A DNA stretch of 64,000 nucleotides from an uncultured bacterium (GTDB lineage Bacteria; Omnitrophota; Omnitrophia; Omnitrophales; Abzuiibacteriaceae), in contig CAYLXA010000001.1 of the NCBI GenBank assembly GCA_964387845.1, positions 256,001-320,000 of the forward strand. The letters run 5' to 3'. The position numbers and the translations under genes are program-made. Under the pieces are notes generated by a model. The model was not told the DNA's origin. It worked only from the letters and a program-made list of their open reading frames with translations, and did not search any database. Below, piece by piece: positions 10,016 to 57,000 of this stretch (the stretch's first letter is position 1; every line of letters starts with the position of its first letter).

Positions 10016-10350
10016 CCTTTTCATTGCTATCTACAGCCTAAAGTCAACTCTATTCAAAGATCAAGTCCAACGTATCAAAATTTGCGCTTTCTCTACTGAC
10101 ACTAGATGAAAATCTATCCACACTAGATAAATCTGAAAATAAGTTTTAATAAAGTAACTATTTAGTCAAACAAAAGACCACATATTTTAGCCGAAATTAC
10201 TAACCGACTCGGCCAACCCATCACGGCTGCTTCTTCAACAAGGCTCTAAGAGAGCTCCTGTTTCCATTTCAACCTGTCTTACCCGTATCCAATAAATCCG
10301 AAGCCAGCGGATATTTCGCTTCATCAGTTTCTTGAATGTCAATTTCTGTT

Positions 10351-10899
10351 TCATTTCGCTTCACCTTTCTTCGTAACAATTGTTTGGATTTTCTCAAATT
10401 CTGAATTAGGAAAACATTTTTCAGCATGACCGTAATGTTCGGCGAGCTCTCTGATGACGTTCCAATGGCTATAAATGAACTTTGTCCAACTAGCATGATC
10501 AATTGGAGCTTCAGCCTGGATCGCATCAATTAGTTCAGAAAGAATCTTTCTTAAACTCATAGCTTCATCCGAAACAAACTCTCTCAAGCAAATTAGGTGG
10601 GCAAGCGTTTTAAACGCCTTCTTCTCTGTCGAGAAACTTGGATTCTCATGCGTAATCCCGTAAACGACCATCCCGAGAAACCAAAGCGCATGTCCGGAAT
10701 TGTGATGCTCCTGCATGAGTCTCTTGTCAATTTGAGGCAAGCTATCGGCTTGAGGCATAACGACACCCTCGAGGCCTACCGCTTCACTTTCGAGGACGAG
10801 TTTCACCTTGTTTTGATAGTTTTCCTCAAGTTGTTTAATATCGATATTTTCTTGATATTTGCTATCCTGTATTTTGTTGTCTTTTGATTGGTTAGTCAT
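10351..10899 (-). CDS. Hypothetical protein, 182 aa, His-rich (HHNSGHALW...H...H; possible metal-dependent fold)
   Basis: ORF with an ATG start. I recognise no confident family. Confidence 0.4.
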   Translation of the reverse strand: MTNQSKDNKIQDSKYQENIDIKQLEENYQNKVKLVLESEAVGLEGVVMPQADSLPQIDKRLMQEHHNSGHALWFLGMVVYGITHENPSFSTEKKAFKTLAHLICLREFVSDEAMSLRKILSELIDAIQAEAPIDHASWTKFIYSHWNVIRELAEHYGHAEKCFPNSEFEKIQTIVTKKGEAK

Positions 10900-11090
10900 G
10901 TCTTATTTCCACCTTTGACTGAACCTTACATGGCCTTTTTTAAAGTGTCAAGGAACTCAATTAAGATAGTTTCTGACATATTTATATCTATATTTGACAT
11001 CCCACGTAAGTTCATGTAGACTTGATACTTATAGGGTAAAACATCTTCTTTTTGACCAGTTAGCCGTTGAAACTTTTTTGAGGTTTTCCT

Positions 11091-12416
11091 GTGTATGATC
11101 AGATATTAGCCAAATACCAAGAGCTATTGCCGGGCTTCCCACAGCTAAGGCGTTCCTTGATTGGATCTATCATTAAGGAGACACGTGTTGATAAGGGTGT
11201 CCGGCAGATGGATTTTGCGAAGCAAATTGGCCTTAACGAAGCAACCCTTAAATCCATCGAGAACGACCACCAATTGGCAACCACTGTCTCAAACCTCGAG
11301 AAATGCGCCAAGGCGCTTGGTGTAAGCGTGGATGAACTTATCCTTCGGGGCCGAGAACATGACCCGGCTAATTTTTTCATCTTTAAGAAGAAAGCCCCTG
11401 CCGTTGTAAAAGGGATACGAAAGCGCAAACGTATTCAAGATGAGTGGCATGAGAGCAAACGGCTCCAATTTAGAAGTTTTGATATGACGCCCTGCTCACC
11501 GCCCATTAATACCAAAAAGGATTTTTTTGTAAGTCGCGTAGTTTTGCCTCCTAAACGTTCAATAGATCAATTAAGCTTGGGCGCTCATCATCACGTGCTC
11601 GGATTTGTTCTGGCGGGTTTTCATATCAAGATTCATTATGCGGGACAAGAATCGGTCGTAACGACAAATCAAGGGTTCCTCTTGGACGGCTTTTTTCCTC
11701 ACAGTATCGTCAATGAGGATGAAGACAACGCGGCTTTGATCTATCTCGTGACGAGAATCCCCCATCCGGAGTCCACTAAGACGAAGTTTGAAACCGCTTT
11801 AAAGACGGTTGAATCCATCGACATTGCCAAGGGCATTGAATACATCCGGAAATATAAATCAGACCGCCCTAACGTCTTGATTGCGGTCAAACATTTAGCC
11901 GACCTAACAGATTCCCTGGATCACGAGCAAATTGCAAAATTGATGAAGCTCAAGAAGGGCTCGTCTGTTATTCATTGGGCAAAGATTGAAGACTTGCTCT
12001 CGGGTGTCGGCGTTTCTATGGAAGAATTTCTGACTTGGTGCCATCATAGAGAAGAAAAACCAATATCACTTGCCACGATTTCAAGCCGCGCCATGATTGA
12101 TTTCACTGCCTATTACGGACTTAAGATTTATTCTGCCGTGCCGCCCAATGTGAATAGCGAATATTTTTTCGGCGAGCTCATGATCGAAGGCAAGAATAGC
12201 GGGAAAAAGAATTGGAAGAGAAAAGACAAAGCCATGGTTGCTATATTTGTAGAAGACGGTGAATTAGAAATCACGGTTGGTAAAAAACGAAGCGCCATGA
12301 CGCTTCTGAAGGGCGAAAGTATTTACTTCGACGGCAATCTGGGTTATATGCTAAGGAATCCTGCAACCGATCAAATGCGGGGGATTTTTACTACTTATCC
12401 TGCTGTGCAATTTTAA
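11091..12416 (+). CDS. XRE-family HTH transcriptional regulator with a long C-terminal domain, 441 aa; the only long plus-strand gene in this block
   Basis: GTG start. HTH_XRE signature QMDFAKQIGLNEATLKSIENDHQLATTVSNLEKCAKALGVSVDELI. C-terminal region of unknown fold. Confidence 0.6.
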   Translation: MYDQILAKYQELLPGFPQLRRSLIGSIIKETRVDKGVRQMDFAKQIGLNEATLKSIENDHQLATTVSNLEKCAKALGVSVDELILRGREHDPANFFIFKKKAPAVVKGIRKRKRIQDEWHESKRLQFRSFDMTPCSPPINTKKDFFVSRVVLPPKRSIDQLSLGAHHHVLGFVLAGFHIKIHYAGQESVVTTNQGFLLDGFFPHSIVNEDEDNAALIYLVTRIPHPESTKTKFETALKTVESIDIAKGIEYIRKYKSDRPNVLIAVKHLADLTDSLDHEQIAKLMKLKKGSSVIHWAKIEDLLSGVGVSMEEFLTWCHHREEKPISLATISSRAMIDFTAYYGLKIYSAVPPNVNSEYFFGELMIEGKNSGKKNWKRKDKAMVAIFVEDGELEITVGKKRSAMTLLKGESIYFDGNLGYMLRNPATDQMRGIFTTYPAVQF

Positions 12417-12422
12417 GAACGA

Positions 12423-13235
12423 TTAACCAAGCGTTCCCAACTCGGTTGCATAGACTTTAATATGTTCAACCATCGTCGGAATATCAAAAGGTTTTTCGAC
12501 CAATTTTTCAGGCGGGAATCCCACCTTTTGCAAAAGGGCTTTCATTTCTTTCGCATACGAAGCAGAAATTGGAATTATCTTGAGGTTCGGCTTTTTATCC
12601 ATGAGTTCTTTGATTAAATTTTGCCCATCCATGCCCGGTATCTTCATGTCAATGATAGCCACATGGCATTCGTCATTCAGAATATGGTCAAGAGCCTTCT
12701 TGCCGTCTGTGAAAATTGTGAGATTGTAGCGCCTTCCCTCCAACACTTCCTTCATGAAATCATTGAGTTCAAGCTCATCGTCCACCAAAACAATTTTGGT
12801 TCGGTTTTCATAGTAAATTTCATCTTCATATTCACTATTGACTTGGCCGGGAGTAACGACACGATTCAATTTTTTATTGATCTTATCTTCAATCTTTGCG
12901 AAATCCCTAAATGGCTTTTCGATCACGTCATCTTGGGTAATGCCAACACTCTTGAGCTTTTCTTTCTCATCGTGATAATAAGCTGTAATAATGAGAACGG
13001 GAGTATTAATATTATTCTCGCGAAGCTTCTTAAGAACTTCGTAGCCGTTCAACCTCTCCATCCGTAAGTCCAAGAGAATTAGATCAACTCGATATGCTTC
13101 GAGCGTCTGATTGACTATAGTCGGATTTGCGGTCGCAATCGGTTCATAATTTCGCCTTCTGAAATGCGTTACAAGCTGTTCAATCACGACTTTATCATCG
13201 TCAACAATTAGGATTGTGCTTTGTTTATCAGTCAT
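12423..13235 (-). CDS. Response regulator with two tandem receiver domains, 270 aa
   Basis: ILIVDDDKVV...LILLDLRM...K in the first half and IVLVDDELELNDFM...VAIIDMKIPGMDG...K in the second half. Confidence 0.75.
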   Translation of the reverse strand: MTDKQSTILIVDDDKVVIEQLVTHFRRRNYEPIATANPTIVNQTLEAYRVDLILLDLRMERLNGYEVLKKLRENNINTPVLIITAYYHDEKEKLKSVGITQDDVIEKPFRDFAKIEDKINKKLNRVVTPGQVNSEYEDEIYYENRTKIVLVDDELELNDFMKEVLEGRRYNLTIFTDGKKALDHILNDECHVAIIDMKIPGMDGQNLIKELMDKKPNLKIIPISASYAKEMKALLQKVGFPPEKLVEKPFDIPTMVEHIKVYATELGTLG

Positions 13236-13651
13236 TTCTTCTCCGGTTCATTTGATAATATTTTCTTTATTCTGCTCATAAAAATATCGGGTTTTAGATC
13301 AGTTGGTTTCTCCAAATAATCTTTTATTGAAAAGATTTCACCTCTATTTTCAAACATGTCCTTAAGAAGTTTATATGGGGTCGCAGAGATAACGGCAACC
13401 TTGGGCTTCCCTGGTGCAAATTTGCACATTTTTACAACTTCAACACCGCTCAATGGCCCTTCAAGCCTGATATCAACCAATATCAAATTGAAAAGCCCAT
13501 GCCCCAGATGTTCCATAGCTTCGTCGCTGGAAGCCGCTGTGTCAACTTGAAAACCTTCGTATTCAAGCGTTTCTTTGAGAACGCTCCTGATATCGATTTC
13601 GTCATCGATGATAAGTACCCTATTCTTTTGAGATTTGATTGCATCCGCCAT
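13232..13651 (-). CDS. Single-domain response regulator (CheY-like), 139 aa
   Basis: RVLIIDDEIDIRSVLKETLEYEGFQV...LILVDIRLEG...VAVISATP...EKP. Overlaps the next gene by 4 nt. Confidence 0.75.
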   Translation of the reverse strand: MADAIKSQKNRVLIIDDEIDIRSVLKETLEYEGFQVDTAASSDEAMEHLGHGLFNLILVDIRLEGPLSGVEVVKMCKFAPGKPKVAVISATPYKLLKDMFENRGEIFSIKDYLEKPTDLKPDIFMSRIKKILSNEPEKK

Positions 13652-13663
13652 TTTTTCTATCTA

Positions 13664-14155
13664 TCACGCCTTATTTGATGAATCTTCTCTTTGTGGCCCC
13701 AAAATCTTCTTCAAAGCTGTAATCAAATTCAAATGAAAGGACTCATTTTTTGGAATAACAGCATGAAATAAAACTCCTTCTAACTGATAGTACCATTCCA
13801 TCCGTGGAAATTCATCTGTCGTGAGGCAAAGCATTGGGAGTTTTATGCCAGCATTTTTTATTCTGCGCGCAAGCTGAATTCCCCAATTAAAATCGATCTT
13901 GGTATCTTTCAATTTTAACAAATGTTTGGCGAGCGGTAGATTTGATTGCGTTCTCATGGACAAAGCAAGAGATTCTCCCCCAATTCGCATTTCTTTGGAA
14001 ATCACAATTGCATCGACTTCATGCCTCCTAATGGCTTCTTCAATAAAGTTTTCACTAGATATTCCTATAACCTCATAGGCAAAGGATTCAAGAATTGGCC
14101 GCAAATCAGCTACCAGATAATCTTCCTCTATGAAGAGAAGTCTTTTCATAAACAT
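13664..14155 (-). CDS. Degenerate or atypical receiver-like domain protein, 163 aa
   Basis: LLFIEEDYLVADLRP...VDAIVISKEM gives a REC-like layout with substitutions at the acidic pocket. Confidence 0.45.
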   Translation of the reverse strand: MFMKRLLFIEEDYLVADLRPILESFAYEVIGISSENFIEEAIRRHEVDAIVISKEMRIGGESLALSMRTQSNLPLAKHLLKLKDTKIDFNWGIQLARRIKNAGIKLPMLCLTTDEFPRMEWYYQLEGVLFHAVIPKNESFHLNLITALKKILGPQREDSSNKA

Positions 14156-16434
14156 TACGATTCTGATTCTCGGTTCTCATTTACGGCATTTTCGGTGGGA
14201 AGCCAAAACACAAACTTTGATCCGCCTTCAAGTCGCTTCTCAAGCCAAATTTTTCCACCATGAAACTCTTCTATAATTTTCCGGCAAACATATAAACCCT
14301 GTCCATGCCCCGCATCCATTGAGATAACTGATTGTGGTTTGGGTTTCGTAGAAAACCCTTGTGAGAAAACCTTATCAAAGAGTGATTCAGGAACTCCAGG
14401 GCCCTCATCCCAATATTCAAACCATGTTACCGGTTTTTCGTTATTGTCACGTTCTGAACCAGTAAGATAAATTAAATCGTTCGGTTGTCCCGCTAAAGCA
14501 TCAATCGAATTCTTAAATAAATTCTCAAATACCTGCTCCATCATGTACACATTCCCGAATAATTTAAATCCTTCGGAGAGCGTGACTTTAAATTTTGGCG
14601 TGTCATCAATGTTCAAATTGCGCTTTGCTGTTTCCCACGGTACCCTAAAATCCATGACTTGCTTCATGTTCTTATCTCCCGCAAGAGCGCCAACAACTGA
14701 ATCCACAACTAACTTGACTCGATCTGCCATGCCTTCAATATCACGCGAATACTTAACGATCGATGCATCAATCTCTTCAAGCTGTCTAGCTTCAATATTG
14801 GTTAGTTTATCTTTAAGTTTATTTTTTAAGCGATTCACGCGGTCTGGCAAATGAAGGCGCATGTTAATGGCAGCACTTCCAACTCCCACTAACTTATTAC
14901 CAGCTTCGTGCTTTAAGCTCCTGGTGAAATTAACTTGTTCGGCAATCTTTTGCGCTTTGACTTTTTCTTCACGCTCAATAACAATATCATTTACGAGTCT
15001 TGTATTTTCTGTGGCAATGGCTGAATCCTGGGCAATTGTAAAAAAAACATCCAAATCCTCGCTTGTGTATGGCTCGTCAGATTTCTTACCGCCAAGAACT
15101 AGCACATTGGAGATTTTCTGATTAAATCCATTGCTTTCAATATCAGGCTGACCAATAAAACTAGGAATTAATGCTTCCGCTTTCAATGCATTGAAAATGT
15201 TGAGAATGTCAGACTGAGATTGAGAATCGAGTCTTTCATCTTTCATATTTTTTTCAATGGAATATGCTGTGATTGGACCATTCTGCGATGTTAATAATCT
15301 GATTACCGGGTGGTTTTCGGAAATTGTTAGCCGCGGACGATTACTTCTACCACCGTATCCTAATGGATACCTCAGATCATATTCATTATTATTGGTTCGC
15401 ATTAAGATTCCCGCATTTCTAATCCTCCCCTGTTTAACCAAATATGCGGAAACTTGTTTAGCTAATTCGTCCAAACTGTGGATGAATGCGATTTGCTTTG
15501 CATTCTCTTTGAGAAGTTTGTGGTAGTCGTATTTTTTTTGGAATAAAAATTTATCAGTAATATTGGTTAAAATTTTTTCCACGGGTCTATAAATAAAAAC
15601 AGATGCTGCAATTCCACATATCATGAGAAAAAAAGGTGATATGCCCACCGTTCTTCCAATAATCATCTGAGTCAACCCTATGGGAATAGAAATCGTCAGA
15701 ACAGATATCGTTACAACTCCAGCAAATACTAGAGTTCGCTTAATAATAAGTTTTATATCCAACAACTGATATTTAACAATTGAAAATGCCACGGTAGCAA
15801 CGTAAACCGCTACCAAAATATTTCCGACAGGTGGAATTTTTATGTTATACCACAAGAAATGATTTGTCATTCCGCCCAAGAAACCTATGAGCGTACCTAA
15901 AAGAACACTAAAATTTCTCTTCCAGACAATTGAATGCTTCTCCTTGATCAGCCAAACAATCATTAAATAATGCGAAACAGTAACATTTAAGGCAAACCAC
16001 AAATGAAATGCATAGAAAAGCGGTCCAGGAACAGGCCAATAGGCAAATGTTAAGCGTTGTTCGACAGTTTGGATGAAATAAGCATTGAATGAGAAAAATA
16101 TTATGACAACACCAAAAATCAAATTCATTAAACGAATAATTCTGTGCTCAGATTCCTTTCCCAGCAGATGGATTATAAACTCGGTAAAAGAAGGCGGTAT
16201 CAAGGTTGAGCCTACCATTGCTAAGCGTATCCAAAATAGCGCTACATCCGCACTAGCAGACGTCATTGTCCATACCCAGACAGCATAACACGCAGCCCAA
16301 AATCCAACGCTAATAGCGAATATTACAAATATAAGATTCAATCGTTTTGTGGGGTTTTTGTGAAGGACAAGAAAACTTACGGAAAAACTTGTAAGAGCGT
16401 TAATAATCGCGGACCAAAAATAATAACCTGTCAT
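14155..16434 (-). CDS. Sensor histidine kinase with an N-terminal 7-TM sensor module (7TMR-DISM-like) and a C-terminal HisKA/HATPase_c region, 759 aa
   Basis: About 7 hydrophobic helices in the first ~280 aa. H-box SLKHEAGNKL. G-boxes in DEGPGVPESLFDKVFSQGFSTK and GHGQGLYVCRKIIEEFHGGKIWLE. Confidence 0.8.
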   Translation of the reverse strand: MTGYYFWSAIINALTSFSVSFLVLHKNPTKRLNLIFVIFAISVGFWAACYAVWVWTMTSASADVALFWIRLAMVGSTLIPPSFTEFIIHLLGKESEHRIIRLMNLIFGVVIIFFSFNAYFIQTVEQRLTFAYWPVPGPLFYAFHLWFALNVTVSHYLMIVWLIKEKHSIVWKRNFSVLLGTLIGFLGGMTNHFLWYNIKIPPVGNILVAVYVATVAFSIVKYQLLDIKLIIKRTLVFAGVVTISVLTISIPIGLTQMIIGRTVGISPFFLMICGIAASVFIYRPVEKILTNITDKFLFQKKYDYHKLLKENAKQIAFIHSLDELAKQVSAYLVKQGRIRNAGILMRTNNNEYDLRYPLGYGGRSNRPRLTISENHPVIRLLTSQNGPITAYSIEKNMKDERLDSQSQSDILNIFNALKAEALIPSFIGQPDIESNGFNQKISNVLVLGGKKSDEPYTSEDLDVFFTIAQDSAIATENTRLVNDIVIEREEKVKAQKIAEQVNFTRSLKHEAGNKLVGVGSAAINMRLHLPDRVNRLKNKLKDKLTNIEARQLEEIDASIVKYSRDIEGMADRVKLVVDSVVGALAGDKNMKQVMDFRVPWETAKRNLNIDDTPKFKVTLSEGFKLFGNVYMMEQVFENLFKNSIDALAGQPNDLIYLTGSERDNNEKPVTWFEYWDEGPGVPESLFDKVFSQGFSTKPKPQSVISMDAGHGQGLYVCRKIIEEFHGGKIWLEKRLEGGSKFVFWLPTENAVNENRESES

Positions 16435-17450
16435 GTGCCATTCTTCGCAAAACAGTATTGAATAACACCTTGCTGCTCATATTCTATGCTTAAATCAGCA
16501 AGTTTAAATCCAGAATCAAGAAATATCTTCTTAAATTCATCTTCCGTTCGATAAACAAGATTCCACTCGCCGACCCATTCCATAAAGTGTATGGCCGGAT
16601 TGCTATATTTATCAAAATAATTCGCGATTACCAATACACCATTCGGGCGCAATAATTTCTTCAGATTTGAAACAAGGCGCACGGAAATCTTCTCATCCAA
16701 ATAATCAAATAATCCCGTTGAGAAAATCAAGTCATATGGTTTTGGAAACTCATGCACTATATCTTTTTTTAAAGCCATACGAACAACATTCTGCTTTACA
16801 AATGAAATGTTTGATAAATCACCTAAAAGCTTCTTTGCGTATGCAATTGCGTTTTCGTCATTGTCTAAACAATCAATATGAATATTTTCTTTGCTGAATT
16901 GAACTTGATCAATAAGTTCCTTAATATCGCGACACGGTCCCGAAGCCAGGTCCATGATATTTATTTTCTCACCATTAACTTTTCGCTCATTAATAAATTT
17001 ACTGATGATCCTTTTGAAATCGTCTTTTCTGTTCCTTGTTGCAACGGAAGCAGCGGATATTTGAAAATAATTATCAAACAATCTATCAAAACCAACGGAT
17101 GTGGGATTGTTCAAATATATATCATCGATGATTTGGAAATCGCCCGCATAACCGAAAGGTTTGTCCACACTCCATTTTATATATTGACCATAAACAAAAT
17201 CTTTCCTCAATTTTGATACAAAAAAGCGTTTCAACTTATACAGCTTTTCTTCATTGCCCCTTGCAATATTTTCCTTTTCAAATAGCATAATGTCGCGAAA
17301 AATGCCGTTTATTTCTTGATTAAATTCACTTTGAAATTTTCCCCATTTATTAGGATCAGCATACAATAATGCCTTAAGTTCCACCGCACGTTTTTTGTAT
17401 CGCTTGATTTTGCTAAGTAAAACTAAGTTTGGCTCGCCAATAGAAAACAT
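16431..17450 (-). CDS. Class-I SAM-dependent methyltransferase, 339 aa
   Basis: Motif I IMDLASGPCRD followed by an acidic motif-II region DCLDNDENAI. The N-terminal ~120 aa are of unknown function. Confidence 0.6.
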   Translation of the reverse strand: MFSIGEPNLVLLSKIKRYKKRAVELKALLYADPNKWGKFQSEFNQEINGIFRDIMLFEKENIARGNEEKLYKLKRFFVSKLRKDFVYGQYIKWSVDKPFGYAGDFQIIDDIYLNNPTSVGFDRLFDNYFQISAASVATRNRKDDFKRIISKFINERKVNGEKINIMDLASGPCRDIKELIDQVQFSKENIHIDCLDNDENAIAYAKKLLGDLSNISFVKQNVVRMALKKDIVHEFPKPYDLIFSTGLFDYLDEKISVRLVSNLKKLLRPNGVLVIANYFDKYSNPAIHFMEWVGEWNLVYRTEDEFKKIFLDSGFKLADLSIEYEQQGVIQYCFAKNGT

Positions 17451-17453
17451 TGC

Positions 17454-17831
17454 TTACACTCCCAAACAATCCATAACTGTTTTCAATAGCTCCCTTATAT
17501 CAAAGGGCTTCATTATATAAGCAATCGGATTCAGCTTTCTCGCCTCACGCTCTATATTATCATCTGCAAATCCAGTAACAAAAATAGTGGGAATTTTCTT
17601 TTGCTTTTTACTCATGTTTTCTTGAATTTGACGCACGGTTTCAACGCCGCTCAGCCCTGGCATGCGTATATCCGAAATAACAAGATCAAAGTCATCTTCG
17701 TCCATTATAGCCACCGCGTCAGACCCATTGCGCACGGTATAAACTTCGTATCCCTGCTTTTCAAGAAGCCGACTCAGAGACTTAATGAGCAATTCCTCAT
17801 CATCAATTACCAAAATTTTCTTTGCTGACAT
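17454..17831 (-). CDS. Single-domain response regulator (CheY-like), 125 aa
   Basis: KILVIDDEELLIKSL...FDLVISDIRMPGLSG...IFVTGFAD...MKPF. Confidence 0.8.
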   Translation of the reverse strand: MSAKKILVIDDEELLIKSLSRLLEKQGYEVYTVRNGSDAVAIMDEDDFDLVISDIRMPGLSGVETVRQIQENMSKKQKKIPTIFVTGFADDNIEREARKLNPIAYIMKPFDIRELLKTVMDCLGV

Positions 17832-17848
17832 TACACAGCTCCTGTTTT

Positions 17849-18088
17849 TTATTTGTTGTCTAGTTTCTCAATAACGTATTGAATGATATCTTGTACTTTG
17901 TTCATTTTTGCAGCATCTTCATCGGAAATCTCAATGTTAAACTCCTCTTCAATTGCCATAATGAGTTCGACCGAATCCAAGGAATCTAATTCGAGATCCT
18001 TAATCAGTTCAGAGTCAGGCGAAACTTCTTCAGGTTTGACTCCCAACTGATCACAAATGACTTCCCTGACTCGAGCTTCAATATTCAT
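17849..18088 (-). CDS. Acyl carrier protein, 79 aa
   Basis: Helical, acidic ACP layout with the phosphopantetheine-site motif DLELDSLDSVELIMAIEEEF. Confidence 0.7.
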   Translation of the reverse strand: MNIEARVREVICDQLGVKPEEVSPDSELIKDLELDSLDSVELIMAIEEEFNIEISDEDAAKMNKVQDIIQYVIEKLDNK

Positions 18089-18093
18089 AACAA

Positions 18094-18435
18094 CTATTTG
18101 GCGTTGAAACCATGAGTCATTACTTTCATGCGCTGAATAAGCTTCTCGATGATTTTCATACCTCTTTGCCTACTTTCACGGGACTGCCGTTCTTTTGAAT
18201 GTAGGATCTGGATAAGTTCGCGACAAAGGTCCTTGTCTTTATCCGTAAATGCCGTTGTCACTAGTATTTCATTAATTCTATTAATGAAATCCGGAATTCT
18301 TTCTTCAAGCATTCTTTCACAATCATTAGATGAAAATGCTATGTAAATTGGGTAAAGCTTATTTCTTTGATATGCCAGCAGTCTCTTGATGGCTTCCTTT
18401 TGTACTTTTGACCGTTCAAATGTCAATTTTTTCAT
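18094..18435 (-). CDS. Hypothetical protein, 113 aa, first gene of the signalling operon
   Basis: ORF only. No motif recognised. Confidence 0.4.
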   Translation of the reverse strand: MKKLTFERSKVQKEAIKRLLAYQRNKLYPIYIAFSSNDCERMLEERIPDFINRINEILVTTAFTDKDKDLCRELIQILHSKERQSRESRQRGMKIIEKLIQRMKVMTHGFNAK

Positions 18436-18637
18436 CAGATTGGTGGCAAAATTCTATCACATTTCTCTATGCAAACTGATGTGAAATAATCAGTTCGCAG
18501 GATTGGCTTAACAGTATAAATACGGCACTTTTAAGCCGTTTTTTGACTTATGATGGAATTTGAAAACAGGAGAGTTTAGCTGAATAACATTGCTGATTGT
18601 GAAATGGGTGCTATAATAAAAACGTGGCTAGAGAGCG

Positions 18638-18697
18638 CTCGACCCGGCACGGAAGAACCTCTCAGGGCATTAAGCCTTTTCGCCACGCTTGACTAAT
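18638..18697. repeat. Copy 2 of the conserved ~60-nt intergenic element
   Basis: ggctagagagcgctcgacccggcacggaagaacctctcagggcattaagccttttcgcca. About 90% identical to 9953..10015. Confidence 0.6.
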
Positions 18698-18759
18698 GTT
18701 AACTCTCCTTATAACCGCTACCTACAACGCGTTTAGGCAAATCCATTGTTCGCAATGAT

Positions 18760-20528: not shown

Positions 20529-21143
20529 CTATTTTTCAATGGCTTCTCTTTTTCGAATATTTTCACGGACTACGCGCAAGAAATCATCCACGGAGAAAGG
20601 TTTAAAAAGACAATCATCAACTCCAAGTTCTATTGCCTGTGTCTGTGGGTCGCCTTCATGAAAACCAGTGATCAACATTTCTCCTGCGCGAGGCCTACCT
20701 AGACTCTTTTGCGCCTTCCGAATTGCTCGAATGGTATCAAGTCCATTCATTTTCGGCATGCGAATATCGGAGATGATTAGATCGAAAAACGTTTCTTTAA
20801 TTTTCTCAATTGCGGATTCTCCGTTCTCTGCTGTTGTGACGCCATAATTCGCTTGTTTAAGCACTTTCGACAGTGAATTGCGAATAAGCTGGTCATCATC
20901 AATCAAGAGAATTTGTCTTATTTTGCCTCTGCTCTGCCGCAATTTACCCTGGCCAATAATACGAGTTACATCATTTGCATCAAAACGCAAAACACCGCCG
21001 ATCCGAATGGGAACTAACAAGCCTTTCTTTATCCAAACAAATATGGTGGAGCGATTCACTGAAAGGATCTCGGCCACTTCTTCCACACGGAGAAATTTTT
21101 GTTCCGACGCAGTATCACTTTTCAATTTCTTCTCTTTTGCCAT
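20529..21143 (-). CDS. Response regulator with an N-terminal excisionase/MerR-like HTH (HTH_17) and a C-terminal receiver domain, about 204 aa
   Basis: LRVEEVAEILSVNRSTIFVWIKKGLLVPIRIGGVLRFDANDV (HTH), then ILLIDDDQLIRNSL...LIISDIRMPKMNGLD...LITGF. The ORF track starts at a TTG at 21152. The first ATG (MAKEKK) is at 21143. Confidence 0.7.
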   Translation of the reverse strand: MAKEKKLKSDTASEQKFLRVEEVAEILSVNRSTIFVWIKKGLLVPIRIGGVLRFDANDVTRIIGQGKLRQSRGKIRQILLIDDDQLIRNSLSKVLKQANYGVTTAENGESAIEKIKETFFDLIISDIRMPKMNGLDTIRAIRKAQKSLGRPRAGEMLITGFHEGDPQTQAIELGVDDCLFKPFSVDDFLRVVRENIRKREAIEK

Positions 21144-21168
21144 TGTGAGCAATTCCTCAATAGTTAAA

Positions 21169-48030: not shown

Positions 48031-51000
48031 TTATGCGGAGTAGAAAACCTGCATTTGCGCGCGGAACTTGCCGACCAAATATGCCGCGGCTGATAATACA
48101 TGGTCCACAAACGCTTGGTTCCAGATTATGACCTTGTCTGCGATTTTTTCAAGAAATGGAACGGCAACCGCGTCATCTGAAACACCGATAATGGCCATGG
48201 AAAGACCGAGATTTCTAAGTTCGGCGCGCGCCTTGTGGTAATCCTCAACGGGAACAATCCTATTTTTTGGATTTGCAATGGTTGCATTAATCTCGTCGAT
48301 GACGCGAAGCTCTGCGCGGTTTGTCACGATCACCATGTAAGAACCGTAAACATCCGAAAGATTCCGGCCAACCACAGCCAGACTTCCCTTTTCGCCGAAG
48401 AAAGCGTTACGCGTAAACACTTTCCCTTCCCGCATCTCTGATCGATTTTGAAGTGCTGTAACAATCTGATTGTCAAAACTGCGAGCGTTTGACACAATCC
48501 GGCGCATTTCGCTTCTCGCTACCGGTGCAATCTCAGTTTGCAAATCTCGGAATAACGGATTTTCTTTGACTTCAACTCTTCCTTTAGCAATGGTTTTTTC
48601 AGTCTTTGCAATGACGCGGAAATTAAAAACTGTTTCACCCGAAACTTCGGACTGCACCTTGGCCATAATTAGCGGGAGCCCCAAAACTTCGCTTTGCACC
48701 TTGTCTCCGATTTCAGTATTATTGAAAGCATCTGCTTGATTTAGAATCGACTTTTCAATCGCGCTTTGAAAATCGATTGGTTTGATTTTTTGAAGGCTTT
48801 CCGGCAGCAATTCCTTGTTAATTTCGCCTTCCAAATGAATACTGACATCATAACGGCTTCCAATTGTCTTTTGAGCGATTGTAAAATTCCGGTGTTCGCT
48901 TGTTAGCGATTTGACGCCCGCCTGCTCATAAAATTGAGCATCAATAACGGGAACCTCGCGGTCTGCGATCTCTTCTAAAATCCGGACCGCGCGATGAATA
49001 TATTTAGCGTGCCGGAAACTTCTTCGCTCATTTTCGCTCAGAGTCAAACTCCTGTTTTTCATCTGCAATTCCGAATACCAGCGCCGGAATAACTTCATAA
49101 TTTGAATCAGCGAAAGCGGCTGGTTAGCGCCGAGCGGATTGGATGAATTTTGTTCGTAAATTCTATTAATATCTGTCTCGCTTTGAGCTGTCCAGCTTGA
49201 TTTTTCCTGATTTAAAACCGCTTTAAGTACCGGAATATAAAAACCTGTGTCACGCTCAATCCACCAATTAAGCACATAAAGAGCGGCGAAGCGCGCAGAT
49301 TGGCGCAGCATATCCGGATTAAAGTTTTTAGGCGCTACTTCAATGAGCGGTTTCCATTCATCAACCGGAATAACCGGTTCAGCTAAGTATTGAAGCAGTG
49401 TTTCGAGGCCAACCTCATTTCCTTTTCCAAGCTCATCGGCTCTTGTCTTCCGGATTGTAAAATTAGGATGCGACAAATTTCTAAGAAGTTTTTGCACCGA
49501 ACGCAGTTCTGATTTTTGGCTGCCGGCATCAGGCCCAGGCATCGGCTCTGTCAATTTTTGGAAACGTTCGGCCAATTCGGTTTCTGAGATTTTAAACATT
49601 TCGTCAACAAACGCTTCGGAACCGCCAAGCTCCCCTCCGTCTTCTCCGAATAAACGGACTTCGACTAACTCATGAAACGCAACGGCAAATCTTTCGGCCG
49701 ATATCCTTTCTTCATCCGTTTTGAATTCAAACTGAAAAGCGAGACGCGTATCCTTAACCGCTTCAAGCGTCATCAAGGCCATCGGATTATCCGCTTCGAT
49801 CCATTCAGCACTCCCTTTGTTCAGATTTTTGATCTTAACAGAAACATTTTTTGCTAGGGCGGCTTGCGCCATTTCGACAATGAACATCGCTGGACTCGCA
49901 TGGACACCTTGCCGGTTCTTGACCGTAACATTGATCTCAATGCTGTTACTTTCCCCTTCCCGCAATTCCGACATGTTTCTATCAGTCGGCGTTACGGACT
50001 TTTTATATTCATTAATCTGATGATCGAGAAAAGCTTCGTAACTATCAATGGCCTGGCTTGTTTGCGCCAACCACTCTTCTTCTTCTTTCAATAATAGGCC
50101 ATGTTCTTCTTTCATTCCCTTCAAAGCAGACTTTGCTTTTCGAAGCTCTGGTAATATTCTGAGATAATAATCGTTCGCTTCCGCGGCTAGAGAATTGCCT
50201 CGATCCGAAACTGACAAAATAAAGCTGCTGAAACGATTCAACAAAACTTCCGTGCGGCTCAATAAAATCTTAATTCTGAGCTGCTGTTCATCCAAAGCGA
50301 TTCGCCTCGGTTTGATAAGAGAATAATAAAGGAGCGCTCCGACTCCTATGCCTATCGCGCCCGCTGAAATACCGATAACGGTATAATTTCGTAATTCAGA
50401 ACGATGTTTAGGCGGACGGGGAAAACTTTGAAAAGGCCCCCTGCGCGCAGCGCGGACAGCCTGAATTCTCGCCGTCACTTCTTCAATAGTATCTAAGTCA
50501 CCGGCTAATTCTGCGTTATGAAGCTCGACTTCCAATCTTGCCAAATCCGTCGAGTGATGCGATTGGTCTACAGCAAACGGAAGCTCGATCGGCTCCTCAT
50601 TTTCCAAATCATTGCGCAGTTCCGAACGGACACCGGATTTTTCGCGAGGCGGCTGTTCAGATTTCGGCGGAACCGGGATCCATCCTTCCCACCGGCGGTA
50701 AACATGCGTAGGCCGCGTCCCTACTTCATTGGAAATATTTTTACCGCGCACGCCATGAACCTGATGGGCTTCATCACGCCGTAAAACTTCGGCTCTTTGT
50801 GCACGAAAATAATCATCCGTAAAATGAGTGATTTCGCCGGTTTTTAAGCCCGCGCGGCGCCAGTCAATGTGCCCTTCGGGATGAACAACACGCATATCTT
50901 TCTTCAGTACCTGCAAAGCTCCGGAAAATGCGGCGTGATTAAACAAAATAACTGTTTTCCCGCGATACTGCTCGTTCATGCGTTTCCAAAAAGCGGCGGC

Positions 51001-54000
51001 GCGGATGATTAAATGGGCAAAACTTTCGCCATGCTCAGGTTTCGCCAAAACACTCCACTTTTGATAACTTCGCGCGGCCTTGAATTGTTCCCGGCCAAAC
51101 TGCGCCTTAATTTGCTCATTGGTGAGCCCTTCCCATTCGCCTTGAAAAATTTCTTTTGTATCGGGATCAATCATCACTTTCAGTTCAATTCCTAATTTTT
51201 CACGTACCAACCGGATAAATGGTTCTGCCGTATCCCGCACACGCCCAAGCGGATTAATGATCACCACAAACTGATCCGGATTTGCTGTGATTTGGTCTTT
51301 AAACTTTTCAAATAATTTTTCAGCGTCAGCTTGCGCTTGCACGCGCCCTTTTGGCGTCAACTGCGCGCCTTCGTTATCCATACCGCTTCCCTGAAACCTC
51401 TTTCTCCCTGTTCTTAGCCCTTCCGCAATGATGTGAGTTTCTCCGTGGCGGATAACGTAAAGATCCAGATCAAGCGCCGGTGGGAAATAAGGCTCTTTAT
51501 AAAAAAGCTGCCCGGTCGATTGATTGACCCAAAAACCCATTTGTTGCAATGTTTCGGAAACATTTTTTCGCAATTCCACCCTCGCCTTCATTAATAAATC
51601 CGGCTGTATTGCACTGGTCGGAACCACAAGTTTGCCGTTTTCCCAATAGACCAGCGCACTCAAAAACTGGAACATGACCGGATCATGTTTTCTCACAAAA
51701 TCAGGGTCAAGCCAGTAAAGAGACTGGGCTTCAAAGAAAAACTCTCGCGCAGAAACAATGCTGTATCGGCTCAAAAACTGCGTTTCAATTTCTTCTTGAG
51801 AATAATCAAGCACCTGCTTCTTTTTCCCAAATTGCCTTTCAAGTGCCTGCAGCCTAGTCTCATAAATCCGTTTTGCAATCTGATAAACTGCTGTTTTATC
51901 GTGTGGAATGTTCACAATAGAGAGTGGTAAATTTTTATTCGCAAAATGCTCTAAGCGCTCAAAGTTAATCGGCAGCGCATACTGATTATGCTCAACGAGC
52001 GTTTCCGCAAGTTCGTGAGTCAGGAGCCGTTCTAAATAAGTAAAGTCCTTATCCCTCACCTTCAAAAATTCATCGCTCACTGGCCCGTCATAGGAGATCG
52101 GATGATCGCCCGCATAAAGTGAAAGAAAGATCGATTTAACATTGGACAGCACAGGATGAAGGGAGTGATAGGTAACGCCTCCCAAATGATCTCCGTTGCG
52201 TCTTACGATAGAACGCGCAATAAATACTTGGGCATTGAGCATTTTAAAAAGCGGTGCAATTGCAATGCCGGCCCTATGGCTTTCAAGGAAATGATTGAGC
52301 TGGCCATATAACTTACGCGCTAATCTCCAGTCGGTTTCACTGTTTAATCCATGCAATACATCAGTCCGAATATGTGCAGAAGAGCCTTGTAGATAACCCA
52401 AAACAATTTGACGCAATTCCGCCCTTGCCCCCTTTGAAGAAACATTTTCATGATCCGCTGGGGCCGAGGGGCTTTCTTGTAGTTCTTGCAAAATTAATAT
52501 CACTTCGTCCGGAAGTCCTAATGCGCTTAAAGCATCCTTGGCGCTTTCGAGCTGATGAAAACTGAAATGATCCGCAAATCTTTCTGCGCGAGACTTATTT
52601 CCCAGCAACCCTGTCAAAAATGGGATAGCCAACTCACGAAAATGAATGCACCATGGCTCCGCTTGAAGAATCCGGTTGGTCAGATAAAGCAGTTTTTTAA
52701 GCTGTTTAAACGATAAATCGCTATCTTGAAGCGCGGCACGGATTGCGTCATGGCCTGCATCCAACAACATAGTCTTAGGGGCAGCACTTTCCGCTTCGGA
52801 ATTCCTGAGCTCGGAACGTATGGCTCTAGATTTAATAGCAACGCTGCCGAGATACACATTGCCGCTCTGGTGATAAAGAAGCGGGTTTTCGTGGCCATCC
52901 ATGCTGATAACGTCTCCATCCGCGATATCACGGCCGGCGATGAGCCAAAGATGCTTTTCCGGCTGGAACACCATGTCCGGAACGCCATAAACGGCCGAAA
53001 TGCCTTCTTTCTGCGCCAGCGTTTCCGCATGCACTGAAATGGTCTTCGCTAAAATATGAACCCCTTTTGGAATCCGGTTAATCATTTCGGGATTCACTCT
53101 GTCCAAGATCAAAATAACGCCGTCAACATCCGCTCGGGGATGAGAAACAAGTTCGCCCAAAAGCTTTTCCGCTGCTTCTATCGAATTAGCCGCCAAACCG
53201 CGAATCGCACCGCCGCTCACGCCATGGCCGCGCGCAATCGGCTGATTGTCAGTCGAGTCGGCAAATTCCGGATATTGATCCGTCACAAAATCATCATTGC
53301 TTTGGACAATCCATATCTTTCCGCGCTCAATCGTGAATTCAAACTGCTGGTTGTAACGGAAAATGTTCTTGAGCTTACGCGCGTACTCGAACACTTGTGC
53401 GTAAAGCTCCGGCTGCAATGCTTCAAATGTTTGTTCATCCGGCCGGATTCGCTCACCATTTCCGATTAAAATGTAATTTTGGCCGGCACGGCTCATCAAT
53501 TGATCGCCGATCGAGTGAAACCGAAATTTACCTTGGAGCACGTCATGGCCGTCCGGAAGTGTTCTCAAAACTGCGTGCCCCGCGCCTGAAATTTTCCCGT
53601 CATCAGTCGGCTTTAAATTTCCGAAAACGCCTTTCTGCAGAATAACGACCGTTCCCCACTCTTGCGAAATCTGATGCCGTGTACGATACGCGCGTGCCTC
53701 TTCGGAGTCCCACGATGCATAAACCGCTTCGACTGCCATCATGACCTGATCCATCATGTCGTTTGGAATTATTTTGCCGTGCCGCGCCACGATTGCTTTG
53801 CACTGTTCCACCACTGCCTTCATGCCGTCTGCCGACAAATCTTCCTTTTCTTTAACATTCAAAACCTGCTCAAATTCCGCCTCAGGAATACCGAGCACAT
53901 TGATCGAAAATGACCGGATAAATTCCGCGTAGGTGTCATACGCAAACCACGCATCGCCGCTTTTTTGGGCAAGCGCTTCGGCTTCCGCGTCGTTCATGCC

Positions 54001-57000
54001 CACATTCGACACAGTAGCCAAAAGGCCGGGCAGCATGAAAGCAGAACCGCTTCGCGCGTACAAAATAAGCTTGAGGTCGGGATACTCGGAGTAGCGTTTG
54101 AGCCGTTCGATTTCGGCTGCGATTTTTTGACGGAATTCGTCCGACCTGAAAATGTCGGGTTTCGTCACTAACTTGGCGCTCAAGATGACACCCGGCGGTA
54201 CGGGAATCCTCTCGTGCGTCATGCGGATCAAGTTCAGGCCCTTTTTGCTCCAAAGCGAGAGAAGTTCCGGCCGTTCATCCGTTTCATTTTCGCCAAACCG
54301 GTACAAATGTTGCTCGAAATCATCCGGCCTTTCCGCGCCGGCATCCTCACGGATGGCTTCGTCCTGGCCTTGCGAAAGCGCAGAAGCGAGAACAGCATCA
54401 AATTTCATGAGCGCGCGGTCAAATGCCGTCGCGCCGGAATTCCGGATCAGCTCATCAATCACCGCGGCTTCAAGTCTCTCTTTTCCTTCAGGCGGAAAGT
54501 CATAAATTTGATAAGTCTGATCATCCTCTGTTTTGGTTTTGATTTTAAAGAGGCTGGTATGTTCGCGCCATAATTTTGCCAGATCGTGATAACCAACTTC
54601 ATCCAAGCTGTATTGCATGGCCGCGCGCATGGTGTTATTTAGTTGCCGGGTAATTTTGTGGACTTCGGCCTCAAGCGTGTGGACCAAATCGTAGAGCTGC
54701 GACGCCTTAATGCTGCCCGAATCAAGCTCAACCATCAATTGATCAAAATCGACACCACCCAGCCCTGAAGCCTGAATAAACCGGCCGAGCGCAATGAGAT
54801 TGGGCAATTCGCGCCGCAAATCGTCTACAGAATTTATTTTTTCAATCTTTTCCTGGACGTGAGCAATCTTTTCCGAAGCTAAAATCGATAATTTCTCGCT
54901 CATTTCAACCAACGTGCGTAAATCATATAGATAATCACCTTCTTCATGCATATCGTTCCACTCCTGGTCTATATCATCCGCATCCTCATCGGCCGAATCT
55001 TCGCCGTCCCGCCCAATGCTCTTCTCTGCCTGTCCCAATACTTTTTTCTGATTTTCCTCTCCGGAAAGCAAAAACTCTTTAAGATCATTTTGCACTTTCA
55101 CGATGGCGGAGAAAATGGCCGCATGATCATCAGAATCGATCAACATAAGCAGCCGATCGTAATCCTCCCGCATAAACCGGGTAATGGCCGTCATTTTCTT
55201 TTTCAAGTACCCACCGTCACGCAGATCTTCAGTTTCTCCTTTTAAGAAAGGAACGATCGTCGCGACGCGAGTTCCGAAATGATCCGCAAAAGCCAAATAA
55301 AGTTGAGTCATTAATTGAACGCGTTCATAGTCAATCTCGGACACATCTTCATCCCGGTTCGCTTCTTCATAAATCGCGACTACTTCACGCTCCGGAATGT
55401 CCAGGATTTCATCCAGAAAAGCCTCCGGATCGCTTTTGCTGATTTTCCCTTTGGCCGCAAGCGCTTTGACAAAACGGTTCAAGAGTTTTGAATAAGTTTG
55501 AAGAGTCGCTGGATTGAAATCTTTTGTCATATCATCCCGCAGCAGAGTCCAGTTGCTTTCCTTTAAAATAGACTCATCAAGCGTCAACCAATAAGCAAGA
55601 ACTCTTCTCGTATTCTCAAAGTCACTTCTATTCAAGTTTCGATGAATACCGTCTCTAAAATGGCTGAACCATCCGCGGCCAAACTCGCCGGGATAAGAGG
55701 CATTATTATCAAGCCGTCTTGAATAGCTGATAATACGGTCCTGCGAATTATCCGTAGAGACGCCGCCCTTGCGTTCGGCTTCGATGACTTTCATTAAATA
55801 AAAATAGGCCGCTCGGGCGTTTGGTTGATGGAGCAAATACAAGGACATCTGCGGATACTCTATGCGCTTTCTGCCTTCGCTTGGAATATCACGCACAAGG
55901 CCTTGGGCTGCCACAAAAGCAGCGGCAAGCGGATCCGCCGGTGAAACGCTCAGCAAGATAGAAATCAGTTCCCTGAAAAATTCGTGGCCTATGGTTCGGA
56001 GGTGCAGCAGAAGGTGAATCAGTTTACCCAAGTCGTCAGGACTTGCTTGGCGGAAAGTTGCTTCTAAATCATGGTGGATATCAGCTTTGATGTAATGCTC
56101 ATTAAAGTAAGCGGCTGCCAACTCAAGAAAAATCCGGTTCTCTTCCGGCGAATTTGTTTTAGAGAGGTAAATCGGAATCAAATGCTCTTTAAAGAAAGCA
56201 TCCGTCATTCTATAGCGGTCGGGCGACATCGCGCTCGACACGTACCACAAGTAGCTCTGTTTCTTATCCAGCGGTAAATCTGCTTTTAAAATAAACTCGC
56301 GAATCAAATTCTGCAGATGCTCTTTAGAATTTTTTTTAAGTAGGTCGATAATCGCCTCTTTCCTCGCCCCGACGGCTTGATTTTGCTCAAACGACAGGTG
56401 CTTGCCGCCTCTTCCAAAACTTAGTTTCATGAGTGTTTGGTAATCGCGCAGCGCTTTTTCGAATTCTTTATAAGACATTGGGTTTGTACGACCGTCCGAC
56501 CTGAGCTCGGAACGTTTTTGGGCAGTAAGTGTTTTTAAATTCGGAAAAAGTGTGCGGAACGGTTCGCCGAAAAAGAGGCGGCGTCGGACAGCCTCTTTGC
56601 GGCGATGAATAAATGCGGCTTGAGTCGGAAAAATAAGATGCCTCGGCAGAGGAGCGTATTTTAAATAAACAGGAGCTGATGTATTGATACCAACATTTAA
56701 TTCCGGGTCTTGCAAATTCGGCAGCGGAAGCGTGAGCACCGCATCCCGCAGAGGATTTTTACTGCGGTCACCGATTGTGCGAATCAGCATGCTGGCTTGA
56801 ACCTCGCTTACATCCCACGGTGAACGGAATCCCAGCCGAACCCAGTCAGATTCATTACGCGATAAAACTTCCGCGACCAGTTTTTCTATTTTTTCATTCG
56901 AAATTTTTCGGCCCGTTTCAACACCGTTCTGATCCAGTTCGGGAACATCGGTCAGCATCCGGCTTAGATATTCCGTCATGGATTGTTTTCCGGTGCGGCG

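Follow-up and report, generated by a model that had tools for sequence, protein, structure and literature searches.

We examined an eight-gene operon on the minus strand of a 64,000-nt (64-kb) stretch of contig CAYLXA010000001.1 from an uncultured Omnitrophota bacterium, here called the window. In order of transcription, the operon encodes an orphan 113-aa protein (hyp113), an acyl carrier protein (ACP), a stand-alone receiver (REC*), a class I S-adenosylmethionine (SAM) methyltransferase (MTase), a HisKA_7TM histidine kinase (HK), a probable pseudo-receiver, a second stand-alone receiver (REC139) and a tandem receiver (REC-REC). Comparison with related loci revealed that the order REC*, MTase, 7TM sensor and receiver is a conserved, paralogous and phylum-wide unit of the Omnitrophota, which are mostly ultra-small, possibly host-dependent bacteria. 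The window operon is one member, from an ACP-bearing sub-lineage, of this large and apparently undescribed module family; no description of the REC*-MTase-7TM unit was found in the searchable literature. With respect to function, we favor, at a probability of about 0.4, the possibility that a receiver-controlled MTase methylates an ACP-derived acyl compound and that this chemistry is sensed by the adjacent kinase.

The eight open reading frames (ORFs) occupy positions 12423-18435, all on the minus strand, and their coordinates were verified by an ORF check of the window. Spacing from 5' to 3' was found to be +5 nt for hyp113/ACP, +17 nt for ACP/REC*, +3 nt for REC*/MTase, -4 nt for MTase/HK (an ATGA overlap), -1 nt for HK/pseudo-receiver, +12 nt for pseudo-receiver/REC139 and -4 nt for REC139/REC-REC. 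The eight genes form one operon. A preliminary description of this DNA had noted eight co-directional, tightly spaced or overlapping genes, all of which were recovered (gaps of -4 to +17 nt), and had counted five receiver-domain proteins; the number five holds for receiver-type domains, one of them degenerate, and the number of proteins is four.

A module conserved across Omnitrophota

Relatives' loci were collected from GTDB species representatives (80), from metagenomes (80) and by exact-protein look-up (a dozen), and are labeled here by L-numbers (L001 is identical to L015, and L019 to L125). Genes in these loci were called by a simple longest-ORF procedure, on contigs of which many were short, and were classified by phmmer with the window proteins as queries; 125 distinct MTase genes were included. 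By this approach, a receiver was found directly upstream of the MTase gene in 84 of the 105 loci with visible upstream DNA, and in 77 of the 105 this receiver was the orthologue of REC* (at least 100 bits, compared to 20-60 bits for other receivers). Directly downstream, a 7TM protein was encoded in 97 of the 107 loci with visible downstream DNA. The median gaps were only 1 nt (REC/MTase) and 5 nt (MTase/7TM), and start/stop overlaps were frequent, including 27 between REC* and MTase genes. When the third gene was surveyed with Pfam, HisKA_7TM was detected in 59 of 64 proteins, GAF in 46, HATPase_c in 46 and HD-GYP in 4. Of 57 loci examined, 36 had a small receiver after the 7TM gene and 11 encoded a tandem-REC protein no more than 2.5 kb from it. 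Further kinases were often present upstream of the module and GAF-HD-GYP proteins downstream, and several genomes or loci carried two or more copies (L015 together with L038; L099, L103 and L062). The window has the same arrangement, with REC* directly upstream and the HisKA_7TM protein directly downstream of an MTase that carries the KPxGYAGD motif. The eight-gene arrangement is not a chance one, since well over 100 independent loci share its core order.

In other copies of the module, receivers are fused directly to lipid enzymes, namely HMG-CoA reductase, a 4HBT thioesterase and a ketoacyl synthase (L015, 10974-18144; L166, 2303-3859). L166 also has the HMG-CoA reductase fusion, L114 has a ketoacyl synthase, and L070 and L103 have thioesterases. 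At L015 the order is MTase-REC::HMG-CoA reductase-REC::4HBT, then, after intervening genes, ICMT-ACP-REC::ketoacyl synthase-ICMT::MTase-7TM (:: marks fusions), so that an ACP and ICMT/PEMT-type methyltransferases adjoin the REC-fused lipid enzymes. At L125 (852-7121), an insert between the MTase and the 7TM kinase encodes an ACP, a 4HBT thioesterase, an alpha/beta-hydrolase::REC protein and a second, canonical Methyltransf_20 MTase; judged from its gene content, this insert is possibly a set of writers and erasers of a methyl ester. The pairing of hydrolase-REC with a second MTase recurs in L007, L125, L137 and L149. Upstream of the module in two further loci (L180, 1375-2946; L181, 23-1588), we observed a protein of ~520 aa with Polyketide_cyc/START-like and ornithine-cyclodeaminase/shikimate-DH domains, and the genes nearby include one for a PlsC-type acyltransferase or for an MGDG synthase.

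The methyltransferase and acyl carrier protein

The window MTase matches Methyltransf_31/12/25 and, weakly, Methyltransf_20 in Pfam, and carries a helical extension of ~150 aa together with the family motifs KPFGYAGDF (residues 97-105), RNRK, GLFDYL and WNLVYR. More than 1296 homologues were present in the protein collection (E <= 1e-5), the best of them 54-66% identical, and the best homologues with a source name were all from Candidatus Omnitrophota. Distant relatives of 25-28% identity were detected by tblastn against plasmids. One of these, on a Paraburkholderia graminis plasmid, is a 468-aa MTase followed by a 445-aa HK and two receivers, of 134 aa and 344 aa, the second with an uncharacterized C-terminal part. 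The Omnitrophota MTase alignment matched this enzyme with an hhalign probability of 99.4% (E=1e-21), and the two have in common, outside the SAM fold, the motifs KP(F/L)GYAGD(F/Y), RNR, GLFDY and W.L(I/V)YR. Another relative forms the C-terminal domain, immediately behind the ACP, of a KS-ACP-MT polyketide synthase (PKS) encoded on an Enterobacter ludwigii plasmid (BLASTP E=3e-24, residues 42-327). The KPxGYAGD, RNR and GLFDY motifs are shared by the window MTase, the Paraburkholderia enzyme and the PKS terminal domain. In Sinorhizobium/Rhizobium, a distant homologue is divergent to a GGDEF-EAL protein (L172, 1289-4753; L174, 1631-4846). Based on these Paraburkholderia, Enterobacter and rhizobial contexts, the MTase family is repeatedly tied to an ACP or to signaling proteins.

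Other searches with the MTase were of limited yield. The P. graminis MTase, used as a tblastn query against plasmids, matched only itself; NCBIfam holds no PhcB model; the MTase alignment profile gave only a spurious capsid match among PDB sequences, and a single-sequence search of the PDB gave weak generic MTase matches. A structural-genomics MTase annotated as a 'putative exported protein' of Bordetella parapertussis (3ocj, 17% identity) is uncharacterized and thus provides no functional information. Identity with BioC was rejected, as the best NCBIfam match reached only 27 bits compared to a cut-off of 185.

The ACP is of the FAS/AcpP type (PP-binding, 62 bits in Pfam; TIGR00517, 92 bits compared to a cut-off of 70 in NCBIfam), and its best solved relatives are the Aquifex and E. 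coli AcpP proteins (E=1e-19 to 1e-21, E. coli at ~1e-19). It is not part of a fab cluster, as no fab genes are present in the 64-kb window. The preliminary description had let its account hang on a conserved ACP serine and on a gene order retained in relatives; the serine is present (Ser36, within LDSLDSVEL), REC-MTase-7TM kinase-REC is kept across Omnitrophota, and an ACP gene lies upstream of REC* in four of the seven nearest relatives with visible upstream DNA. The gene orders of these four are REC-ACP-REC*-MTase-HK-pseudo-REC (L090, MTase 66% identical), HTH_17-REC-ACP-hyp112-REC-REC*-MTase-7TM (L175, 66%), ACP-REC*-MTase-HK-degenerate REC-REC-REC (L177, 61%) and REC-ACP-REC*-MTase-HK-REC-REC/REC (L115, 56%). 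An ACP is found elsewhere within the cluster in four further loci: between the MTase and thioesterase genes of L019/L125, in L015 as described above, and amid the downstream receivers of L124 and L159. Thus, eight ACP-bearing loci besides the window were detected in ~1.29 Mb, with the ACP on the same strand and in at least four different positions, where ~1-2.5 would be expected by chance at an assumed density of 1-2 ACP genes per genome. In a neighbor-joining tree of the MTases, only the window, L090 and L175/L091 were resolved as a clade, and monophyly of the ACP-bearing loci could not be decided from it. The closest homologues of the ACP itself (L087, L088) are on short contigs and uninformative. 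Between the ACP and REC* genes of L090 (2356-2550), a 64-aa ORF is weakly similar (38 bits) to the Methyltransf_20-type second MTase and may be a remnant of a larger insert of the L125 type.

The protein hyp113, encoded upstream of the ACP, had no match in Pfam or NCBIfam, and a search of 1.84 billion representative proteins yielded only 3 relatives (identities of 97, 44 and 34%). It is a real, lineage-restricted companion of the ACP, because its 44% relative (hyp112) is the gene adjoining the ACP in L175, upstream of REC-REC*-MTase. The possibility that hyp113 is a degenerate receiver was rejected (hhalign probability 2.7%).

Kinase, receivers and neighboring genes

The kinase and receivers carry the sequence features expected of a two-component phosphorelay (H-box His, HATPase_c and receiver acidic pockets). 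By hydropathy, the kinase has approximately nine hydrophobic helices, which correspond to the HisKA_7TM region and two more. Homology was detected between its middle region and the part of its relatives that contains GAF. In an alignment with 40+ homologues, His509 falls on their conserved H-box His, and HATPase_c is detected in Pfam at 65 bits. In REC*, residues D10, D11, D54 and K108 are invariant and T86 is nearly so; the DD...D...T/S...K pattern is kept in REC* (REC125), in REC139 and in both halves of REC-REC. Orthologues of REC139 are encoded in L115 (47% identity) and L024 (38%), and the same two loci encode orthologues of REC-REC that are 65% identical to it.

The 163-aa protein encoded after the kinase had no Pfam match. 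Over its full length, it could be aligned with a receiver profile (hhalign E=1.6e-4, probability 50%); the position of Asp54 is taken by Ser, and a stretch of 29 aa is inserted. A single-sequence AF2 model begins with beta-alpha-beta-alpha-beta and is of low confidence (pLDDT 53). Counterparts are present at the same position in L090 and in L177, the latter with a 'faint' Response_reg match. The earlier designation of this protein as a degenerate receiver is plausible and moderately supported by the profile alignment.

Table 1. Features of the operon and its surroundings in the window.
Feature	Position	Strand	Remarks
hyp113, orphan 113-aa protein	18094..18435	(-)	first operon gene; no family match
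Acyl carrier protein, 79 aa	17849..18088	(-)	FAS/AcpP type; Ser36 in DSLD
REC*, stand-alone receiver, 125 aa	17454..17831	(-)	conserved MTase partner; Response_reg 97 bits
Class I SAM methyltransferase, 339 aa	16431..17450	(-)	N-terminal helical cap, family motifs
Membrane sensor histidine kinase, 759 aa	14155..16434	(-)	HisKA_7TM, divergent GAF-like middle, H-box His509, HATPase_c
Probable pseudo-receiver, 163 aa	13664..14155	(-)	lacks phospho-acceptor Asp
REC139, stand-alone receiver, 139 aa	13232..13651	(-)	Response_reg 57 bits
Tandem receiver REC-REC, 270 aa	12423..13235	(-)	no output domain; Response_reg 132 bits, two stretches
325-nt intergenic region 5' of operon	18436..18759	(-)	likely promoter region
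HTH_3 + cupin regulator	11091..12416	(+)	convergent with operon; Pfam; operon membership uncertain
FG-GAP/VCBS-repeat secreted protein, 580 aa	18760-20502	(-)	between HTH_17-REC gene and operon
HTH_17-REC response regulator	20529..21152	(-)	2 kb upstream; Pfam HTH_17 + Response_reg; membership uncertain

The intergenic region upstream of hyp113 is the sole long non-coding gap on the minus strand between this gene and the FG-GAP gene. A putative TGATAGAAT extended -10-like element was read by eye from the sequence ~20 nt before the hyp113 ATG; a generic promoter and terminator scan gave a signal at chance level. At the other end of the operon, the convergent HTH_3 + cupin gene has a counterpart in L115, where a 442-aa gene of the same architecture is likewise convergent after the tandem REC.

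As the preliminary description had pointed out, the eight genes encode no DNA-binding output domain (Pfam). The HTH_17-REC protein encoded upstream is a possible DNA-binding partner of the operon. Among 93 relatives, a small stand-alone HTH_17 gene heads the module in nine, including L175 (2161-2355), and in at least two distinct loci (L047, L111) and in proteins P0079 and P0115 the MTase itself carries HTH_17 at its N-terminus. In all three forms (REC fusion, stand-alone gene and MTase fusion), the HTH_17 is of the excisionase type. Because of the upstream HTH_17-REC gene, the HTH_17 genes that head modules and these fusions, a transcriptional branch of the pathway is possible.

Further observations were made on the surroundings of the operon. 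The G+C content is 36-42% at positions 1-18000, with a minimum of 36-38% over the MTase and kinase genes, and 44-50% in the housekeeping-rich portion at 18000-64000; the contrast could reflect an island or merely gene content. At 1980-9705 (minus strand), a toxin-like protein of 2070 aa (SpvB/TcdB/RHS-YD-repeat) is encoded, and an Ig-like/Glucodextran_B protein of 503 aa precedes it; the domains of both were assigned from the annotation already available for this region in L089. Also on the minus strand, a giant ORF (at least 5321 aa) lies at 48031-63996 and extends to a few bases from the end of the window.

A proposed acyl-signaling pathway and its alternatives

Among known systems, the operon is most like the phc-type MTase/kinase/receiver system, an analogue that the preliminary description had missed. 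In the phc system, PhcB makes methyl 3-hydroxymyristate or methyl 3-hydroxypalmitate, which is sensed by the kinase PhcS (PMC6989110, PMC8578825), and the receiver protein PhcQ influences signal synthesis (PMC6989110). PhcB (RSc2735) is ~470 aa by coordinates, PhcQ consists of a receiver followed by a C-terminal part of unknown kind, and PhcB homologues have been reported in Paraburkholderia (PMC6989110). The P. graminis MTase-HK-RR-RR operon described above matches Ralstonia phcBSRQ in layout and protein sizes. The window operon likewise combines a SAM MTase, co-transcribed with a multi-pass membrane HK, and receivers devoid of DNA-binding domains, and the Omnitrophota MTase may thus belong to the PhcB family, as we infer from the homology to the P. 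graminis enzyme. Yet the two systems differ in several respects. The window HK has a HisKA_7TM and GAF-like sensor, and the phc-like kinase has no HisKA_7TM; a receiver precedes the MTase in the window operon, unlike in phcBSRQ; the window receivers are REC-only or REC-REC, with no PhcR- or PhcQ-type C-terminal domain; and no LysR gene of the PhcA type is present in or beside the operon. The window operon also adds an ACP and a pseudo-receiver, occurs in another phylum and has many paralogues per genome.

Other systems show partial likeness. The terminal MT domains of PKSs (KS-ACP-MT of the E. ludwigii plasmid; structurally CurJ, AprA MT2 and citrinin CMeT) are related to the window MTase, which differs in being free-standing in a signaling operon, with a separate ACP of the AcpP type; no KS, AT or other PKS domains were found in the window. 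BioC, a malonyl-ACP O-methyltransferase, is a class I MTase that acts on an ACP-bound carboxylate and gave the best, though weak, NCBIfam match. Unlike the window MTase, it has neither the helical cap nor the KPxGYAGD motif, and no bio genes are nearby. A che operon was also considered, as an MTase lies beside a membrane receptor and several CheY-like receivers, and some relatives encode REC-fused hydrolases. In the window operon, the receptor is itself a histidine kinase. Consistent with the preliminary description, which had stated that this is not a che operon, no CheA, CheW or MCP domains were detected in the operon (Pfam, NCBIfam); in addition, the MTase scores below the CheR Pfam cut-off, has no CheR_N and does not have CheR among its top structural neighbors, and a che operon was therefore rejected.

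In the pathway that we favor, the operon would encode a branched two-component system. The MTase would be a small-molecule enzyme acting on an acyl or lipid-like compound that the co-encoded ACP carries or has released, and the product of the MTase would probably be a carboxyl methyl ester. Carboxyl methylation is the simplest reading because of the thioesterase/ACP/MTase/esterase sets in L125 and the ICMT-type enzymes of L015. The hydrophobic product or its precursor may serve as a ligand or membrane cue for the adjacent 7TM-GAF kinase, which would autophosphorylate on His509 and serve as phosphate donor for the stand-alone receivers. REC*, whose translation is coupled to that of the MTase, may gate the enzyme or feed back on it, much as PhcQ influences PhcB output. 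For the other receivers and the pseudo-receiver, roles as phosphate sinks, connectors or protein-binding outputs can be envisaged. The substrate, the methyl-ester product, the sensing of a ligand by the kinase and the feedback through REC*, like all functional statements made here, are drawn from homology and gene context.

Several observations weigh against this pathway. Being a typical AcpP, the ACP could serve the cell as its housekeeping carrier; it is missing from three of the seven nearest relatives (L178/L179, L180 and L181) and from ~94% of modules, and hence the core function cannot need an ACP dedicated to it. Rather than defining the module, the ACP is an accessory found in a sub-lineage. 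The HTH_17-MTase fusions and the rhizobial pairing of the MTase with GGDEF-EAL proteins fit a regulatory or sensor MTase equally well. The link to phc rests on operon architecture, protein size and the published statement on Paraburkholderia, and the window and P. graminis kinases are alike only in the catalytic domain (E=2e-6), with non-homologous sensor domains.

The absence of the ACP from most modules and from L178, L180 and L181, its canonical AcpP score and the lack of any other fab gene in the 64-kb window would all be explained if the module were unconnected to acyl chemistry and the ACP, with hyp113, were a housekeeping acpP or a spare copy that shares a promoter in this lineage. We consider such a coincidence improbable, as the eight other loci with an in-cluster ACP exceed the chance expectation given above, several of these ACPs lie beside a thioesterase or a REC-fused ketoacyl synthase, and the MTase family is found fused behind an ACP in a PKS. 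An equally improbable account, in which the ACP is again irrelevant, is a CheR-like adaptation system: the MTase, under REC* control, would methylate the 7TM kinase or a receiver and thereby tune sensitivity, with REC-fused hydrolases in the role of CheB. The nearly invariable adjacency of MTase and 7TM sensor is consistent with this, as are the resemblance of the hydrolase-REC and second MTase of L007, L125, L137 and L149 to a phospho-controlled writer/eraser pair and a weak similarity of the MTase to the SAM-binding region of CheR (Pfam E=0.0017); the structural neighbors, and the occurrence of family members as PKS domains or as stand-alone proteins with no kinase, argue otherwise.

Of the alternatives, membrane-lipid homeostasis or remodeling is the least unlikely, although we still regard it as doubtful. 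Here the 7TM kinase would sense a physical or chemical membrane property and the receivers would switch lipid-modifying enzymes, in the window an MTase acting on acyl-ACP or a membrane lipid, whose product would be structural rather than a signal; the scheme is loosely like the DesK/DesR control of a desaturase, but post-translational, via REC partners. The direct fusion, in L015 and L166, of receivers to bulk lipid enzymes (HMG-CoA reductase, ketoacyl synthase and thioesterase), the PlsC-type acyltransferase and MGDG synthase among the neighbors of L180 and L181, a sensor that is almost wholly membrane-embedded and the lack of a DNA-binding domain in the window operon are all in its favor. 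By contrast, the presence of several module paralogues per genome or locus is better suited to diversified pairs of signal and receptor than to a single loop, the MTase is the sole lipid enzyme in most modules, and some third genes have HD-GYP outputs that replace the kinase.

The preliminary description had proposed a phosphorelay tied to an acyl or lipid modification rather than to transcription. The first part gains comparative support from the ACP, 4HBT, REC-ketoacyl synthase, REC-HMG-CoA reductase and hydrolase-REC genes of other copies and from the homology to a PKS domain; the exclusion of transcription is not established, given the HTH_17-REC gene upstream and the HTH_17 domains in relatives. 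A wider proposal, unlikely in its full extent, is that Omnitrophota use diversified lipid-ester signaling modules, in which a receiver-gated, PhcB-like MTase turns an ACP-derived acyl chain into a methyl-ester signal that is read by its cognate seven-helix kinase, with the same kinases switching lipid enzymes via fused receivers (REC-ketoacyl synthase, REC-HMG-CoA reductase and REC-thioesterase). Under this wider proposal, lipid metabolism would be subject to post-translational phospho-control, and the methyl esters would represent cell-cell or cell-host signals of a new class, found beyond the Proteobacteria.

If the acyl-signaling pathway is correct, an MTase family known functionally only from Ralstonia phc would have a large, unnoticed radiation in an uncultivated phylum, wired to the poorly understood HisKA_7TM sensor domain, for which it would provide a concrete and testable class of ligand. 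The REC fusions to ketoacyl synthase, HMG-CoA reductase and thioesterase would then imply direct phospho-control of lipid biosynthetic enzymes, of which no description was found in the searchable literature. Even if this pathway is wrong, the triad of REC, MTase and 7TM kinase remains a conserved, phylum-wide signaling unit that deserves a name.

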